In this document: positions 34,995 to 42,660 of the stretch, one piece after another
How positions within the stretch are numbered: the first letter of the stretch is position 1
Layout: the number at the start of each line of letters is the position of its first letter
NCBI GenBank assembly: GCA_048941015.1
Contig: JBHLNZ010000003.1
Location: 32,001-96,000, forward strand
DNA: 64,000 bases
Reading direction: 5' to 3'
From: Promethearchaeota archaeon
Lineage (GTDB): Archaea; Asgardarchaeota; Lokiarchaeia; Sigyniarchaeales; SOKP01
The notes under the pieces: generated by a model
The model's database searches: none
What the model saw: the letters and a program-made list of their open reading frames with translations, nothing else
What the model was told of the DNA's origin: nothing
Translations under genes and position numbers: made by a program

Positions 34995-36164
34995 TTGAAA
35001 ATTAATATGATTGTAGAACCAAATCATTCTAAAAGCTATATTGGTCCTAAAGCCATTTTTGATCCTAATTATGTCCCTAAACAAATTCTCTTCAGAAGTC
35101 AAGAAGTTCACTCTTTATACTCTATTCTAAATGATTCCTTTTCGGATAATTTTTGTTTAAATATTTTATACCAGGGAATTCAAGGGATTGGAAAAAAAGT
35201 AATTGTTAATAGGGTACTCAAAGATCTTTCAATTCAAAATAGTAATGATTTAAGTCTTAAACAAATTACAGTTGACTGTAAACAAAAGAGTTTTGAAGAA
35301 ATACTCGTTGCAATATTAACTGAGATTAATGGAATCTGTAATTTTAGTTTAAATTTCAATTGTTTAATAAATTCAAATATTTCCAATCTATGGAATTTAT
35401 TTAAATTAGCATGTACAAAGATTAATTCAAATTTACTCTTTGTATTCAATAATATAGAAACCTTGTCTCCAGAACTTTTGAAAAAGCTTTTGCAATATGG
35501 AAAAGAGAAGAAAATAAGTTTTATTTCAACTATTAATAAAGTTTTAAAACCATCAAGTTTAGATCTTCTGAATAATTTTGATTTAACTAAAAAATTAGGA
35601 TATTATTCTTATCAACAATTATTTGAAATCCTAAAGCAAAGAGCATCAATAACTTTTTTAAATCAAATTGATAAAGAAATCATTGAAATTATAACAGATT
35701 TAATCTTTGAGCACTATGTACCAGTTCCTGGAAAGGGTATAGAGATTTTAAAAGAGATATACCCCGTTTTAAATGAAAAAAGTAAGTATAATAATCTTGA
35801 AATCCTTGAAATTATAAAAAACCAATTTGATTCTATCCAGTTATCAGATGAATTTAATTTACTCACCTATATTTCAGACGAAGAATTATTAACTATTCTC
35901 TTTTTAGATAATATTTCGAGTTATTTTTTAAAGAATAGTCATTATTATATAACTTCAAAGAAATTAAAAGAGCTTTATTATATTTCATGTGAAACTATAG
36001 AATACGACAAAATTTTAGAACATTTTTATGATATTGTAAAAAAGTTTCAAAATATTGGTATACTTAGTTTATCTAAAAGAAATTTTAGCGGTAAATTATT
36101 TTTCTTGGTAATAAACCCTAAAAGATTAAAAACAATTGTTGACACAATCTTCAAGAATTTTTAA
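34995..36164 (+). CDS. Divergent Orc1/Cdc6-like protein, probably ATPase-dead
   Basis: FDPNYVP...FR..E N-terminus; Walker A GIQGIGKK; Walker B FVFNNIE; Y...L.EIL..R; C-terminal wHTH. Confidence 0.8.
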   Translation: MKINMIVEPNHSKSYIGPKAIFDPNYVPKQILFRSQEVHSLYSILNDSFSDNFCLNILYQGIQGIGKKVIVNRVLKDLSIQNSNDLSLKQITVDCKQKSFEEILVAILTEINGICNFSLNFNCLINSNISNLWNLFKLACTKINSNLLFVFNNIETLSPELLKKLLQYGKEKKISFISTINKVLKPSSLDLLNNFDLTKKLGYYSYQQLFEILKQRASITFLNQIDKEIIEIITDLIFEHYVPVPGKGIEILKEIYPVLNEKSKYNNLEILEIIKNQFDSIQLSDEFNLLTYISDEELLTILFLDNISSYFLKNSHYYITSKKLKELYYISCETIEYDKILEHFYDIVKKFQNIGILSLSKRNFSGKLFFLVINPKRLKTIVDTIFKNF

Positions 36165-36377: not shown

Positions 36378-39300
36378 TTGACACACATAAAGAAAATTTC
36401 TATGACGGGATTTAAATCATTTGGAGATCGGACAGTTACAATTAGACTTTCAAGCGGATTTACTTGTATTGTAGGACCAAATGGAGCTGGAAAGTCTAAC
36501 ATCATTGATGCCTTAACTTTTGCTTTAGGAAGATTAAGTAAAAAAACCATGCGAGCGAAATCATTAGAGGATCTTATTTTTGCAGGATCAAGAGGAAAGA
36601 ATCCTTCCAATAGAGCTACTGTAACCTTGTATTTCGATAATTCTGATAAAGAATTTCCAGGGGATTCTGACACTTTTGAAATATCACGAACAATTAAAAG
36701 AGGGGGAGGCGGAGGATATAAAATGAACGGGGAAAAAACAACTAGACAGCAAATTCTAAATGCTTTGGCTGCAGCAAATATAGATCCTGATGGTAGTAAT
36801 CAATTTGTACTTCAAGGAAAAATAGTTGAATTAACCCACATGAATCAAGAAGAAAGAAGAACTTTTATTGAGGATCTTATCGGGTTACAGAAGTATGATG
36901 AAATGAAGGATGCAACAATGAAAGAATTAGAAAAAGCAGAACGCGATTTGGGACAGTTTGAAGCGATTTTCAAGGAGGTCTCATCACAATTGAAAAAAGT
37001 TGAAAAAGAGAAAAATGATGCTATTGCTTGGAAAGAACTTGATGAAAAAATTAAACATTATAACGCCCAATTAATCGCACTAAAAATATCTAAATTAAGA
37101 AACGAAGAACAAGAAATAGAGGTTAAGATAGAAGAGTCAAATAAAGTAATCGAAGAATTAGAAGAAAGAATAACAAGACAAGAAGACGTATTAAAACAAG
37201 AATCACTTATCATGGAAAATATTCAAAAGACTATTACGGAAAAGGAAAAAGAGAGAGAAATCATAAATGAAAATATAACGCAATATAAAACTCAACTCTC
37301 TTCAAACCAGACAACCTTAAAATTAGCTCAAAAATCAATTGACAAATTAAGTCTAGAAATTAAGAACTTAGAAACTATGCTAATGGAGCTTGAGGACGGT
37401 CAGACATTTGAATTATTAATCGATGAAAAAAAAAGTGAAATCTCAAAGACCGAAAGTCTTATAGAAGATTCTAAAAAGGAAATAGAATTAAGACAACAAA
37501 ATCAATCTGAACTCGATCTTAAAATTAAAAATAATGAGGATATGAAATCCTCTCATAAGGCAGAAATTTCGAATATTAAACAAAATATCTCTTCAAATAA
37601 AGCCCAAATAAAATTACTAAGGGATTCAATAAAGAAAAATGAAGAAAAAAGGAAAAAGTTAGAAATAGATTTAAATAAATTAAAGGGTGAAGCAGAAAGC
37701 ATTGATGACGCAATTGTCAATACGAAGAAGGAAGAGAACGAAGCTAGAAGTAAAATTGACGATTTAAAATCTAAAATTTCCGAAGAGAACAAGAAACAAA
37801 AGGATTTAGAAAATAAAATTAAAGATTTTCAAGATCAAAAATATCAATTGAATACCAAACTTGTTGATTTACAATCTTCTTTATCTTCCTTAAATACTGA
37901 AATTAAAATGAATAGGGATAGAATTGATAAGCTAAATTCTAAGAAAGGATTAATAGAAAATAAAATTAAAGAATTGAGTAAAGGAAAAGATACTGAAGAA
38001 GTCATTAAAGACCTATTGAAAGAGAAAGACAAGATAATTAAAGATCTGAATGAGTTAAAGAAAGAATCCAAAGAAGAAGATTCAAAATACAGGCAAAATG
38101 AACAAAATTTAGATCTATTAATCATGAAACAAGATTCTATTCAATCAGAAATAATTGACAATAAATCTAAAATTGAAAATATAAAGACTAAATTAAAATT
38201 ATCTAAAAGAGAACTAACAAACTTAGAAAGAGAAAAACGAGATTTGGAATTAAAAGTTAATACTTTAAAATCTAATATTAAGAAAGATGAAAATGAAATC
38301 CAGAATTTAGATAGTAAAAAAGATAATATTTTAAGACGTTTAGATGATCTCTCTTCAGAAAAAGATAATTTAATATCGAAGATTGAAAATACTGAGAAGG
38401 AATATGAAAGGAATACTGAAGATGTTACTGGAATCCTCCAAATTTTAAACATGCTAACTCAAAATATTAATATCTCTGTTGAATCGATTAAAAGTAATAT
38501 TCAGCAATCAAATGCAGAAGCAATTGAAACTTCTGCTGAAGATTTTAGAAAATTTGTGTTAGATATAGTAGATATAATGAAATCTGTAGAAGATGTAAGT
38601 GAAGAAGGAGAAAAATCATCAGAAATGTCCGAAATGCTAAATTCAATATTACAAACATTAAAACTTTTTACCGAAAATGTTGATTCAACAATCGGTCAAC
38701 TAATAGGTAAGGTAAAAGAATCTGCTGATGTTGAGATACAACAATCAACCGCAACTTTTGATAGTTTTGTTCAAGATTTAATGGAAATACTGGAAAATGT
38801 ATATCTTTCTCTAAGAAAGTTAACCATGTCTAAAAGTCAAGAATTATATCAACAATTAGAAGAAATTTCGGATAATATTGGTTCTCAAACAAATGATTTA
38901 AATAATCTTGAGAAAAGTCTTACGAAACTGGACACTGAAAAAAAGCATAACACCGAAAGTCTTAATTTAAATTCAAAAAGGCTTGAAATAGTTAATACAA
39001 GAGTTATTGAATTAAAAAATAATATTGAAAAATTTGATAAAGAAATCGATCAAAGAAATAAAATTATTGATGAAAAGCTAAAACAAAATTTTGAGAAGGA
39101 GATTCTAGACTTAAAAAGGAATAAAGAGCTATATTGGGAAAATGTATCTAAAATCCAAGAAGAGATAGATCTTAAACAAAAGAATCTCGATGAATTACAA
39201 GAAAAACATCAAGAATTAAGAGGTATTCAAAATTTATTTGAAAATGTATTAGAGATTGAAAATAATATCCAAGATTTAAATAGCTCGATAGAAGAGAAGA

Positions 39301-40826
39301 AAAATTCAATATTATCTGCAGAAGAAATTATAAAAAATCATCATATAGAGCAAAATGCATTAGATTCTAAAATTGAAAAGTTAATATCTGAAAAGGATAA
39401 TTTCTGGGAAAGTACCGAAAAAATTCAAGCTGAAATTGATGACTACAATAAAAATTTAGAAGAGATTATGGATCGAATGAGAGCACTTGAAAATATTATG
39501 ATGATTATTAATTCTATTGAAGATTTAGTCAAAGAAAATGAGGATGCCAATAATAATATTGATTTATGTGACAAAAATATACAAACTTACAACTCCCAAG
39601 TAGAAGAAATCCAAAAGAAAGTTGATGAAGTTCAACAAATCATTGATGCACTAAGAGAAGAAAAAAATAATGAAATTGAAGAACAAAAGAAATCACAAAA
39701 AGATTTAAATAAATTAAACAAAGACTTACAAAAGATTCAAGGAAAATTAAATGAACTTAACCAAAATAAAGAAAGGCAACAAAAGATTCTTTCATTAAAT
39801 GAAGATATTAAAGATACAGAAAAACAAATTGAATCGATTTTAGCAGATATAGAAAAAATAGAAAAAGCATTATCTACGGAAAACGATAAGAAACAACTAA
39901 AACAAGATGAAATAGATAAGTTTATCCAAGAAAAAGATGAATCATGGAAAAAACAGAAAACTTATCAAAAACAACTAAACGATTTAAAATCTGATCTCTC
40001 TATGGAAAATTCAAAATTGAATAATTATGAGTCTAAAAAAATTATTACTACAGACCAGATTGAAACCTTATATCAAAGATCAAAAGATTATGGGGCTTTA
40101 CCCCCTGTTACAGATGAATTATCTGAATCAGGATTACAATCTGATATCAATGAAGCTTCTAAAAAGAAAGTTGCTCTTGAACCCGTAAACCTAAAAGCAA
40201 TAGAACAATATGACAATGTTAAAGAAAGATTCGATGAAATAGATATGAGAAGACAGACAATTCAGAGAGAAAGGAAGTCTATATTGGATGCTATTGATAA
40301 AATTGAGTTAGAAAAAACTAGAACTTTTATGAAAGCGTATCATGAAATAAACAGAGAATTTAGCAGAATCTTCCAAAAATTAAGTCCTGGAGGATCAGCA
40401 AAAATGATTCTTGACAGACCAGACAAACCATTTGAGGGGGGTGTTAGTATTGAAGCAAGACCGAGAGGAAAGAAGATTTCAAGTTTAGAGATTTTAAGTG
40501 GTGGAGAAAAAACATTAGTAGCGTTATCTTTTATTTTTGCAGTTCAAGAGTTTTATCCTGCACCTTTTTATATTATGGATGAAATAGATGCAGCCCTTGA
40601 CGGTCCAAATGTTCATCGAACATCAATGGTTATAAAAGAATTCGCAGAACAGGCTCAATTCTTAGTTATTAGTCATCGAGAGGAGAATATTGTTAATGCC
40701 GATCGTATATATGGGGTTTCAATGCAACAAAGCGGTATTACTGATATATTTAGTGTAGATTTAGAAGAAGAGGCTAAGAGACTTCTTGAACTGCCAGATG
40801 TACCAACAAATATAGAAGAAAGCTAA
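36378..40826 (+). CDS. smc: SMC chromosome segregation ATPase (atypical centre, long arms)
   Basis: GFKSF, GPNGAGKSN, LQG, PVNLKAI, LSGGEK, MDEIDAALD, ISH; upstream of scpAB. Confidence 0.95.
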   Translation: MTHIKKISMTGFKSFGDRTVTIRLSSGFTCIVGPNGAGKSNIIDALTFALGRLSKKTMRAKSLEDLIFAGSRGKNPSNRATVTLYFDNSDKEFPGDSDTFEISRTIKRGGGGGYKMNGEKTTRQQILNALAAANIDPDGSNQFVLQGKIVELTHMNQEERRTFIEDLIGLQKYDEMKDATMKELEKAERDLGQFEAIFKEVSSQLKKVEKEKNDAIAWKELDEKIKHYNAQLIALKISKLRNEEQEIEVKIEESNKVIEELEERITRQEDVLKQESLIMENIQKTITEKEKEREIINENITQYKTQLSSNQTTLKLAQKSIDKLSLEIKNLETMLMELEDGQTFELLIDEKKSEISKTESLIEDSKKEIELRQQNQSELDLKIKNNEDMKSSHKAEISNIKQNISSNKAQIKLLRDSIKKNEEKRKKLEIDLNKLKGEAESIDDAIVNTKKEENEARSKIDDLKSKISEENKKQKDLENKIKDFQDQKYQLNTKLVDLQSSLSSLNTEIKMNRDRIDKLNSKKGLIENKIKELSKGKDTEEVIKDLLKEKDKIIKDLNELKKESKEEDSKYRQNEQNLDLLIMKQDSIQSEIIDNKSKIENIKTKLKLSKRELTNLEREKRDLELKVNTLKSNIKKDENEIQNLDSKKDNILRRLDDLSSEKDNLISKIENTEKEYERNTEDVTGILQILNMLTQNINISVESIKSNIQQSNAEAIETSAEDFRKFVLDIVDIMKSVEDVSEEGEKSSEMSEMLNSILQTLKLFTENVDSTIGQLIGKVKESADVEIQQSTATFDSFVQDLMEILENVYLSLRKLTMSKSQELYQQLEEISDNIGSQTNDLNNLEKSLTKLDTEKKHNTESLNLNSKRLEIVNTRVIELKNNIEKFDKEIDQRNKIIDEKLKQNFEKEILDLKRNKELYWENVSKIQEEIDLKQKNLDELQEKHQELRGIQNLFENVLEIENNIQDLNSSIEEKKNSILSAEEIIKNHHIEQNALDSKIEKLISEKDNFWESTEKIQAEIDDYNKNLEEIMDRMRALENIMMIINSIEDLVKENEDANNNIDLCDKNIQTYNSQVEEIQKKVDEVQQIIDALREEKNNEIEEQKKSQKDLNKLNKDLQKIQGKLNELNQNKERQQKILSLNEDIKDTEKQIESILADIEKIEKALSTENDKKQLKQDEIDKFIQEKDESWKKQKTYQKQLNDLKSDLSMENSKLNNYESKKIITTDQIETLYQRSKDYGALPPVTDELSESGLQSDINEASKKKVALEPVNLKAIEQYDNVKERFDEIDMRRQTIQRERKSILDAIDKIELEKTRTFMKAYHEINREFSRIFQKLSPGGSAKMILDRPDKPFEGGVSIEARPRGKKISSLEILSGGEKTLVALSFIFAVQEFYPAPFYIMDEIDAALDGPNVHRTSMVIKEFAEQAQFLVISHREENIVNADRIYGVSMQQSGITDIFSVDLEEEAKRLLELPDVPTNIEES

Positions 40827-40850
40827 ATTATTAGTAAGAGAAGGTGTTTA

Positions 40851-41864
40851 ATAATCCCTGAAAATGAAGAAAATAAAATAAAGTATAATTTTAAAGAGTG
40901 GACTGTTAAACAATTAAGAGAGTTTGCTGGAAAGAATAATATAACTATCCCCTCTAAATCTAAAAAAGTAGAAATAATAAAATTATTAAAGGAAATAACT
41001 TCTCACCCCGAATTTGTTGATAGAACTAAATCTGAAGATAAAGAAGATGAACAGGAAGAAGAACTTGAAATTGAACTGATTGCTGGAGAAGAAGAACCAG
41101 AGCTTATCAAAAGAGAAAAAATAGAATTAAAGTTTTGGCAAAAACCACCTTATTCTAGTTTATTAGATTCTGAATTAGCCAAACAATCAAATGTCGCATT
41201 TTATGATTTAGCTTCATTAGTTGATAAATTTTTTGATAATATGCTTCATGAAGATATCATTAATTACAAAATTTCTGGTATTGCGCTTAAAACTTCGGCA
41301 TCATTACACCATTATAAAATCTCAAGTATTATTAAAGAAGAAGAAGAAATACAAAAAAAACAAGAACTTGAGGAATTTAGAAGAAAACATGGCCGTACAA
41401 TTCCAAAAACTTTACCTCAACCAATTTCTCCTAAAATGATGATATCTACAAAAGAAGAATTATTTGAAGCAATGAGATCAGCAATAATCGAAACAATGCA
41501 ACAAAAAGAAAAATTAAGAAGGCGACGTTTACGTAGAGAGCAATTAAAGCAAGAAAGAATTCAAATGCAGTCAAAAGCACAATTACCTAAAGAACTTTTA
41601 AAACATATTAGTGGAAAAGAACAAACGATTGAAGAATTGCTTGAATCATGGTATAATCGCATCAAAGCAAGTATTAACCTTGATAATGAAGATACTAGCC
41701 TTTTTAGTATGGTCAATGTCATAAAAACCGAAGAAGAAAGCGATATTGGCAGAAAATTTGCGTTTGTAAGATTGTTTTTAGCATTAATGTTTTTGTCAAC
41801 GGGGAATAAATTAGTCTTATCTCAAGATGAGGATTTCAAAGATTTAATGATTAGTGTAAAATAA
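40851..41864 (+). CDS. scpA: Kleisin ScpA (about 337 aa) with N-terminal HeH/SAP-like module; non-canonical ATA/ATC start
   Basis: Frame open from 40827 to the track's ATG at 41241; the N-kleisin motif (PPY.SLLD...YDLASLVDKF...ISGIAL..SA.L...K) spans that ATG; C-terminal FLALMFL...L.Q.E.F.D; AAGGTG SD. Confidence 0.88.
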   Translation: MIPENEENKIKYNFKEWTVKQLREFAGKNNITIPSKSKKVEIIKLLKEITSHPEFVDRTKSEDKEDEQEEELEIELIAGEEEPELIKREKIELKFWQKPPYSSLLDSELAKQSNVAFYDLASLVDKFFDNMLHEDIINYKISGIALKTSASLHHYKISSIIKEEEEIQKKQELEEFRRKHGRTIPKTLPQPISPKMMISTKEELFEAMRSAIIETMQQKEKLRRRRLRREQLKQERIQMQSKAQLPKELLKHISGKEQTIEELLESWYNRIKASINLDNEDTSLFSMVNVIKTEEESDIGRKFAFVRLFLALMFLSTGNKLVLSQDEDFKDLMISVK

Positions 41865-41895: not shown

Positions 41896-42660
41896 ATGAG
41901 TGAAGAGCATGAAAGTTTGAACGAAAATGAAAATTCAAATTCTGAGGGAGATTCGAATGAGAAACTTGAAATAATATCTAAAGAGAAATTGAATATAAAC
42001 AACCAATCTCATGATAACCTTCAAATCGACAATGAACAACAAGTTGATGAAACAATACGAGAACAGGAGAATATTTCTTTAGATGAAATTATAAAAGAAG
42101 GTGAAATTTCTCAAAAGGATGATGAAGAAGCTGTAGATGTACAATTAAAAGATTTACAAAAAAATTTAATAGAAGGAGCTCTTTATGCTGCTGGTAGACC
42201 TTTAGATATTGAAGAGTTATCAATAAAATTAGAGATTTCTAAAAAAATAGTAGAAGAGTTAGTCATGGAAGTAGCTTATGATTATTTGGAACGATCTAGT
42301 GCTTTAATTATAGCACAAATCGGAGATAAGTTCCAAATGCAAATTAGACCGGAATATACTGAAAAAGTATCAAAATTTGCAAAAGGAGGTGCGATTGCAG
42401 AACGATATTTACGAACTTTAACAATAATCGCTTTAAAGCAACCTATATTAAAATCTACTGTAATTAAATTAAGAGGAACCGGTGCTTATGAACATATTAA
42501 ATATTTATTAGATAATGATCTAATCTCTGCAGTAAAAAAAGGTAGGACTCATGAATTATCAACAACAGATAAATATGCAGAGATGTTTGGATTGCCAAAA
42601 AATAAGGAAGAATTACGAAAGGCAATGATACTACAGCTAGGATTAGAAAGTCAAGAATAA
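41896..42660 (+). CDS. scpB: SMC-Scp complex subunit ScpB with acidic N-terminal extension
   Basis: IEGALYAAGRPL, LRTL.IIA.KQPI, RG, TT.KY.E.FGL. Confidence 0.95.
   Translation: MSEEHESLNENENSNSEGDSNEKLEIISKEKLNINNQSHDNLQIDNEQQVDETIREQENISLDEIIKEGEISQKDDEEAVDVQLKDLQKNLIEGALYAAGRPLDIEELSIKLEISKKIVEELVMEVAYDYLERSSALIIAQIGDKFQMQIRPEYTEKVSKFAKGGAIAERYLRTLTIIALKQPILKSTVIKLRGTGAYEHIKYLLDNDLISAVKKGRTHELSTTDKYAEMFGLPKNKEELRKAMILQLGLESQE

Follow-up and report, generated by a model that had tools for sequence, protein, structure and literature searches.

A long SMC protein without a hinge, encoded beside kleisin and ScpB genes in Lokiarchaeia

The hinge is regarded as a hallmark of all SMC–kleisin complexes and as important to their mechanism, with roles in dimerisation, in DNA binding and possibly in DNA entry. 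A precedent for a replaceable hinge exists in Bacillus subtilis, where the functional Smc chimera Smc(Zh) carries the zinc hook of Pyrococcus Rad50 in exchange for its hinge; an unrelated apex module supports function in this protein, and arm length matters in discrete steps (PMC5344682). The only natural hinge-less SMC reported in the literature we searched is a cluster of marine Actinobacteria, described as having SMC-type heads and a coiled coil, no hinge and no CxxC, and as coming from metagenomes only (PMC12153180). Here we describe a long SMC protein of 1482 amino acids (aa) that has no hinge. It is encoded in a 64,000-nucleotide stretch of the genome of a Promethearchaeota archaeon, which as a whole is called the window below. 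Our full-text searches on Asgard or Lokiarchaeal SMC hinges and on hinge-less SMCs returned no description of a long hinge-less Asgard SMC family. The assembly that carries the window (3.59 Mb, 95% complete, 5% contamination) is labelled G000 and the contig C64; the window is very AT-rich, with a G+C content of ~25–30%. Labels for families (f), genera (g) and genomes (G) are those of a distribution survey of 201 genomes sampled across the phylum.

The gene and the two halves of its ATPase head lie as follows.

36378–40826, + strand: long hinge-less SMC gene, 1482 aa, TTG start and TAA stop, from the open reading frame (ORF) list and its translation and from matches to SMC_N and TIGR02168.
36378–36887, + strand: N-terminal half of the ATPase head, aa 1–170, with Walker A (GPNGAGKS) and the Q-loop.
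40083–40823, + strand: head-proximal joint and C-terminal half of the ATPase head, aa 1236–1482, with the VNL motif, the signature (LSGGEK), Walker B and D-loop (YIMDEIDAALD) and the H-loop (ISHR).

The long SMC is a true SMC ATPase with a canonical head. Walker A, signature, Walker B with D-loop, and H-loop are all intact in the translation, and the protein scored 141 bits against SMC_N and 592.9 bits against TIGR02168, over the cut-off of 567.35. Against TIGR02169 it reached 602 bits, under the cut-off of 729, with the best-matched stretch at aa 1050–1462. Among the orthologues in family f1, mean pairwise identity is 82% in the N-terminal and 91% in the C-terminal half of the head. The likeness to prokaryotic Smc–ScpAB, the ~1200-aa Asgard SMCs included, extends from the ABC-type head with all its motifs and the TIGR02168 score above cut-off to the antiparallel arms and the adjacent kleisin and kite genes. 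A split ABC head, a long intramolecular antiparallel coiled coil and kleisin and kite genes are thus all found, and of the features that mark an SMC only the hinge is missing. Unlike Smc–ScpAB, the long SMC also has arms of about 512–575 aa as against about 344 aa, and an apex formed by an acidic, duplicated helical hairpin.

We did not detect a hinge or a zinc hook by any method. Neither CxxC nor GX6GX3GG was found anywhere in the sequence of the long SMC, which holds two cysteines in all, at aa 30 and aa 1064. The region between the head halves, aa 171–1235, contains no proline, 12 glycines and one cysteine, and its midpoint (aa 675–825, window 38400–38850) contains four glycines and neither proline nor cysteine. 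PF06470 (SMC_hinge) gave no match to the whole protein at E ≤ 0.01 and no match at E ≤ 10 to any of 20 apex orthologues. A hinge profile made from the hinge region of 18 canonical Asgard SMCs was compared with a profile of the apex by hhalign, and the two aligned over 7 columns with a probability of 0.1%. As a positive control, the same hinge profile recovered the divergent hinge of the second SMC of this genome with 90% probability (E 1.5e-6, 127 columns). A profile search of PDB sequences with the apex returned only designed or generic helical proteins (E ≥ 0.0095), and an ESM Atlas search with aa 670–835 returned unnamed clusters with best scores of 0.87–0.88, below the meaningful level. 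Two AlphaFold2 (AF2) models contained helices only. The original prediction, made from the letters of the window, had pointed to a midpoint with almost no glycine, no GX6GX3GG, no CxxC and no obvious β-strands, and had expected no hit to SMC_hinge; the composition counts, the motif scan, the models and the Pfam search agree with it on each point. We conclude that the long SMC has no hinge fold.

It is very improbable that a hinge is there but has diverged beyond the reach of sequence methods, or that the gene is decayed or misassembled. Hinges can diverge strongly, as is seen in the SMC5/6-like paralogue of this genome, which scores only 31–37 bits against PF06470. However, the very profile comparison that recovers this control hinge at 90% gives 0.1% for the apex, AF2 predicts no strand across 831 residues, and the region is without proline and nearly without glycine. 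A divergent hinge was rejected on the Pfam search at E ≤ 10, on the hhalign comparison with its positive control and on the two strand-free models. Against decay or misassembly stand the intact ATPase motifs and, in a word-indexed search, 170 near-full-length homologues of equal length (about 1474–1487 aa) in which the apex is conserved at the level of the heads. The independent metagenomes from which these homologues come, and an apex that is much better conserved than the arms beside it, make chance or an assembly artefact very unlikely. The named public homologues are all labelled Lokiarchaeota/Promethearchaeota or another Asgard group, and public annotation calls these genes merely "chromosome segregation protein SMC" or "AAA family ATPase".

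In place of a hinge, the apex is predicted to be a helical hairpin whose tip is made up of the following parts.

38415–38588, + strand: apex repeat A, the ascending tip helix, aa 680–737, which contains the most conserved segment (aa 684–712).
38607–38621, + strand: turn of the hairpin tip, aa 744–748, within a variable acidic loop at aa 740–752; the sole non-helical apex residues in both AF2 models.
38628–38801, + strand: apex repeat B, the descending tip helix, aa 751–808; both AF2 models show it as a helix that kinks once, at aa 766/767.

AF2 model 1 (aa 590–910, 32-sequence alignment, mean predicted local distance difference test [pLDDT] score 86) consists of a helix at aa 591–743, a four-residue turn and a helix at aa 748–909, with no strand. 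Model 2, from an independent run on aa 330–1160 (pLDDT 80), has the same turn at aa 744–748 and forms one uninterrupted antiparallel coiled coil, again with no strand; the turn corresponds to residues 155–158 in the numbering of model 1 and 415–419 in that of model 2. A monomeric four-helix bundle was rejected, since neither model packs the four conserved segments together and both show two long helices instead. The original prediction of a hinge replaced by a helical bundle therefore stands in part: the hinge is absent and the apex is all-helical and conserved, but the models show a two-helix antiparallel hairpin rather than a globular bundle.

A Foldseek search with the single-chain AF2 model, one of the checks proposed with the original prediction, and an exhaustive VIA search returned only long helical hairpins, namely the chemoreceptor 2ch7, PrgA and the arms of Rad50, Smc and MukB. 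These matches are generic long hairpins and are uninformative on function. The best of them was the cytoplasmic signalling hairpin of chemoreceptors (PDB 2ch7; Foldseek E 8e-4, VIA Z 14.5 over 303 residues). Like that of the long SMC, this hairpin is long and helical and most conserved at its tip. In methyl-accepting chemotaxis proteins, two such hairpins associate as a four-helix bundle. Unlike a homologue, the chemoreceptor has no sequence relation to the long SMC (7–12% identity); the geometry they share is that of hairpins in general, and the analogy extends only to the packing of the tip.

The two sides of the tip resemble each other in sequence. Repeat A (aa 680–737) and repeat B (aa 751–808) were aligned by BLASTP without gaps over 58 aa, with 28% identity, 60% positives and E 1e-7; the tip is thus a tandem duplication of one 58-aa helical unit. 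Within f1, mean pairwise identity is 88% at aa 684–712 and 80% at aa 785–825, close to the 82–91% of the heads, and falls to 46–49% in the adjacent distal arms (49% in the distal part of the N arm) and 27% in the tip loop. The hydrophobic fraction is 0.37 in the apex and 0.27–0.28 in the arms, and the charged fraction is 0.24 as against 0.39–0.44, with an apex net charge of −13. The hydrophobic stripe covers 2.24 heptad positions in the ascending tip helix and 1.3–1.4 in the arms. Conservation of this kind suggests that the tip is functional.

The SMC gene is followed on the same strand by genes for the partners of a Smc–ScpAB-type complex.

40827–41864, + strand: kleisin (ScpA-like) with an N-terminal HeH/SAP-like module, a 345-codon open frame straight after the SMC stop.
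41896–42660, + strand: ScpB (kite), 254 aa, with 110.5 bits against PF04079 and 94 bits against TIGR00281 (cut-off 89.2).

The kleisin of the window is 56% identical, in an alignment that starts at codon 102, to the 329-aa kleisin behind the long SMC of genome G147. PF02616 (ScpA) matches six of 12 kleisin orthologues, with a best E of 5e-6, while HeH matches nine and Rho_N five; the best PDB profile matches of the kleisin were the N- and C-domains of ScpA and Scc1, all of them weak (E 0.02–0.2). In 11 further orthologous loci, a kleisin directly follows the SMC stop. The gene order Smc–kleisin–ScpB is present both in the window and in G147, where the ScpB has 332 aa. In G089, a 382-aa ORF without assignment stands in the kleisin position between the long SMC and a 296-aa ScpB. 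The window ScpB is the single PF04079 match in the whole assembly. Both the fully canonical heads and the scpA and scpB genes behind them, as first read from the window, are confirmed by the profile scores, the ATPase motifs and these two frames.

The start of the kleisin is unusual. Its frame contains no ATG, GTG or TTG for 138 codons after the SMC stop, and none of them precedes the conserved KFWQKPPY block, yet the conserved kleisin sequence already begins at codon 102, ahead of the first ATG (41241). The closest relative (G065, locus L028) is likewise without a standard kleisin start, while in more distant orthologues a GTG or ATG start comes immediately behind the SMC stop. As no standard start precedes the conserved sequence, translation would depend on a non-canonical start codon (ATT, ATA or ATC) or on translational coupling. 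In the window the kleisin shares the reading frame of the SMC gene across its stop codon, but a read-through fusion of SMC and kleisin was rejected because only 4 of 21 orthologous loci are in frame, not above the chance level of 1/3. The HeH/SAP-like module lies at window 40890–41000; when the kleisin N-termini at loci L023 and L038 were compared, those of genus g4 carried a short zinc-finger-like motif, CPYCGK...H..C, there instead.

The long SMC was found in only a small part of the phylum. A search with the apex (aa 665–835) against 1.84 billion representative proteins returned only 37 matches at E ≤ 0.001. In the 201-genome survey, the apex was present in 38 of 40 genomes of family f1, in all three of f2 and on one 8.6-kb contig of an f22 genome, and was not found in the remaining families searched. 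This contig (C70 of G193, locus L040) holds the sole long-SMC match outside f1 and f2, and in a head tree this match hardly differs from that of the f2 genome G165; mis-binning or a recent transfer is the likely cause.

In a PF06470 scan of the same genomes, most other families had an SMC of ~1200 aa whose hinge matched strongly (E about 1e-32 to 1e-39), and many of the genomes also have a second, weak-hinge protein of the SMC5/6 type. Within f1, the PF06470-matching genomes of genera g1, g2, g3, g5 and g7 show the weak hinge only, and three f1 genomes have no match. Beside the long SMC, a strong-hinge SMC of 1196–1205 aa (about 112–121 bits) is found in six of the seven genomes of g4, g6 and g8 and in G089 of f2. 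In the two loci examined, those of G147 and G089, the canonical SMC lies on another contig and is followed by a shorter ScpB of its own (197 or 189 aa). The genome that carries the window has a single, weak hinge match and one ScpB, and nothing in it matched the canonical hinge profile. Because a canonical hinge SMC and its ScpB were not found in this genus, the Smc–kleisin–ScpB complex with the long SMC is probably its only condensin-type SMC, beside an SMC5/6-related one on another contig.

This second SMC (contig C32, L010:4249–10132) has 1168 aa and scored 31.5–36.7 bits against PF06470 and 52 bits against SMC_N. Its heads are weak, with a divergent Walker A (GPNWSGKT), and ORFs of 216 and 169 aa without Pfam matches follow it. 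The locus is probably an SMC5/6-related SMC–kleisin–kite operon, and an SMC5/6-related operon has been described for Asgard and TACK archaea (bioRxiv 10.1101/2024.01.07.573240). In G026, G074 and G054, closed or nearly closed genomes from families f5 and f14, TIGR02169 gave no match at E ≤ 1e-10 and PF06470 matched very weakly or not at all, and some Asgard lineages may lack a canonical SMC altogether.

The relation between long and canonical SMCs was addressed with a maximum-likelihood tree of the head domains (41 sequences, LG+C20). The long SMCs form one clade with support of 98/100, a stem of 0.59 substitutions per site and very short internal branches. Unlike them, all sampled canonical Asgard SMCs, including those from the same order, fall into a separate clade with support of 89/85. 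Because the two sets of heads separate in this way, the long SMC is a paralogue in its own right, not one recently derived from the local canonical gene; we take it to be a Lokiarchaeial paralogue family, found in one order, rather than a mutated canonical SMC. A recent duplicate of the order's own canonical SMC was rejected because the long family lies outside the clade of sampled Asgard canonical SMCs, in a tree whose rooting is weak. A head-domain phylogeny had been proposed along with the idea that the hinge was replaced. The heads do group together, but the position of their clade points to a separate paralogue instead of a hinge swap, and "replaced" proves too simple for a family that coexists with a hinge SMC in sister genera and in the sister family.

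How two long SMCs might be held together without a hinge is a matter of interpretation. Because the long SMC has no hinge fold or motif and no zinc hook, and because its apex is all-helical and conserved, dimerisation at the apex, if there is any, must differ from that by the Smc–ScpAB hinge or the Rad50 hook. The best overall explanation, and one we think rather likely, is that two tips dimerise side by side as the arm-distal contact of a hinge-less Smc–ScpAB-type complex. The long SMC would work with its own kleisin and ScpB, and two hairpin tips would pack into a four-helix bundle, as do chemoreceptor hairpins and the hook-proximal coiled coils of Rad50. This bundle would supply the permanent arm-to-arm link that is given elsewhere by the hinge or by the zinc hook of Rad50. 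The Smc dimer and the kleisin would still close a ring or rod around DNA, with translocation by the usual ATPase cycle of the heads. The acidity of the tip argues against DNA binding of the hinge type, and the tip probably would not have this role of the hinge. Invariant polar positions on its surface suggest an additional partner, for which the tip may also serve as a docking site.

The same invariance bears on a different explanation, in which the tip chiefly docks another protein, or folds back at an elbow to dock on its own heads or kleisin; self-dimerisation would then be weak or absent, and the chains would be joined by head engagement and kleisin. Nearly all residues of aa 684–712 are invariant in the family, polar surface included, as in the partner-binding tip of chemoreceptor hairpins, and the periodic helix breaks of the arms could serve as elbows. 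A homologous module also occurs twice in unrelated proteins of ~1000–1180 aa with a Lys-rich tail, which would fit a portable interaction module. However, the tip is more hydrophobic than the arms, suggesting that it is buried, and the protein family with the homologous module was not found in G000, which gave one apex match only. We also know of no characterised SMC–kleisin complex that lacks a stable arm-distal dimer contact. On balance, we consider chief use of the tip for docking unlikely, though worth keeping in view.

The proteins in question, P0138, P0144, P0146 and one in G089 (L026:6178–9255), are not SMCs. One apex-like module was matched at aa ~70–220, and a second was recognised by eye near aa ~330–470; beyond these lie a middle region that does not look helical and a Lys-rich tail like that of histone H1. 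They may represent a partner of the SMC tip module or a relative of it.

Tips could also join end to end. An antiparallel overlap of the kind proposed for the RecN coiled coil would produce a long rod with its heads at the two far ends, connecting two DNA segments, with no ring closed by kleisin. The homologous sides of the tip would have a pseudo-two-fold symmetry, such that parallel and antiparallel packings present similar surfaces, and a V or rod geometry would not be imposed by any hinge. Yet a dedicated kleisin and ScpB are conserved beside the gene, which makes sense only if the heads of the dimer can meet, and the heads score as Smc, reaching just 26 bits with the RecN model (cut-off 408). 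We therefore regard an end-to-end arrangement as improbable and side-by-side packing of the tips as the better account.

Several points weigh against side-by-side dimerisation in a hinge-less complex of a separate paralogue. AF2 confidence is lower at the tip than in the arms (pLDDT 78–82 in model 1 and 61–72 in model 2), and both models are of single chains, whereas the contact between tips would join two. The widening of the hydrophobic stripe is modest, and it is weak in the descending helix (1.6 heptad positions). The strongly conserved polar surface residues fit a partner-binding site as well as they fit self-association. Every member of the family comes from a metagenome-assembled genome, and the SMC complex is predicted from genes. 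The missing canonical SMC was judged from about 30 assemblies that are 81–100% complete. The head tree contains Asgard SMCs only and is rooted on one very long SMC5/6-like branch, which constrains the age and origin of the paralogue weakly.

Between heads and apex run two unusually long arms.

36888–38423, + strand: N-terminal coiled-coil arm, aa 171–682, 512 aa; its helix breaks are spaced by ~97 aa, and it repeats internally at an offset of 195 aa.
38853–40082, + strand: C-terminal coiled-coil arm, aa 826–1235, about four 90-aa modules with K-x3-W motifs at aa 916, 1006 and 1186.

Counted from the head, the N arm reaches the conserved apex after 512 aa and the turn after ~575 aa. The arm of Bacillus Smc has 344 aa, and natural prokaryotic SMC arms cluster in length modes of 238, 341 and 515 aa (PMC5344682); the arms of the long SMC are thus ~1.5 times as long as is normal and come close to the longest of these modes. 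Self-similarity of the arms was scored against shuffles that preserve the heptad phase. For the C arm, z was 6.4 at an offset of 90 and 4.6 at 180, and for the N arm it was 7.8 at an offset of 195. AF2 model 2 has short helix breaks at aa 436–441, 534–539, 902–905 and 945–947, of which the first two, in the N arm, are ~97 aa apart. Internal repeats and regularly spaced breaks support lengthening by duplication, and the arms apparently grew by duplicating coiled-coil modules of ~90–97 aa. Across window 37400–40000 there is a register mismatch between the ~97-aa modules of the N arm and the 90-aa modules of the C arm. In the model, the 4–6-residue breaks in the N arm (aa 436–441 and 534–539) may absorb this difference.

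Among other known proteins, Rad50/SbcC is like the long SMC in having a long coiled-coil hairpin without a globular hinge at its apex, and a Rad50 coiled coil (7zr1) was among the best structural matches. Unlike Rad50/SbcC, the long SMC has no CxxC hook, and its scores against Rad50 models were about 105 bits or less against cut-offs of 700–1087 (best, 105 against 1000). Its neighbours are an Orc1/Cdc6-like gene, kleisin and ScpB rather than Mre11/SbcD. The Orc1/Cdc6-like gene, at window 34995–36164 directly upstream of the SMC gene, is divergent (TIGR02928, 60 bits against a cut-off of 181). In G147 the nearest ORF upstream of the long SMC has 141 aa, a size unlike that of this gene. Identity with Rad50, SbcC or RecN was rejected because all models scored far below their cut-offs, and identity with ASRP (NF045487) because the long SMC reached 136.9 bits against a cut-off of 300. 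An SMC5/6 identity was rejected because that paralogue is a separate gene on C32 and the SMC5/6-like sequence is a distant outgroup in the head tree.

The remaining comparisons concern other SMCs. The heads of the long SMCs form a clade separate from that of the canonical Asgard SMCs, with which they coexist in some genera. Smc(Zh) is artificial and has a metal-dependent hook, whereas the apex of the long SMC is natural, metal-free and helical. The actinobacterial hinge-less cluster is bacterial and, as far as the available part of its description goes, has no reported kleisin or kite context, which by that description sets it apart from the long SMC (PMC12153180).

Taken together, it seems that nature has built a condensin-type machine without a hinge. 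We see about an even chance that Lokiarchaeia carry a natural Smc–kleisin–ScpB motor without one, whose arms of roughly 70–85 nm are held by a metal-free, duplicated helical tip as a third solution beside hinge and zinc hook, and which is the only condensin-type complex in many species. If this is true, the hinge with its DNA-binding and gate roles would be dispensable for SMC function, as shown in nature, and a new dimerisation module would exist in the closest prokaryotic relatives of eukaryotes. The hinge-less family lends itself to asking which roles of the hinge DNA loading and loop extrusion really require, and how the length of the arms is adjusted. It occurs in Asgard archaea, where two and, in some genera, three SMC complexes coexist, and so has a bearing on the multiplication of SMC complexes before the rise of eukaryotes.

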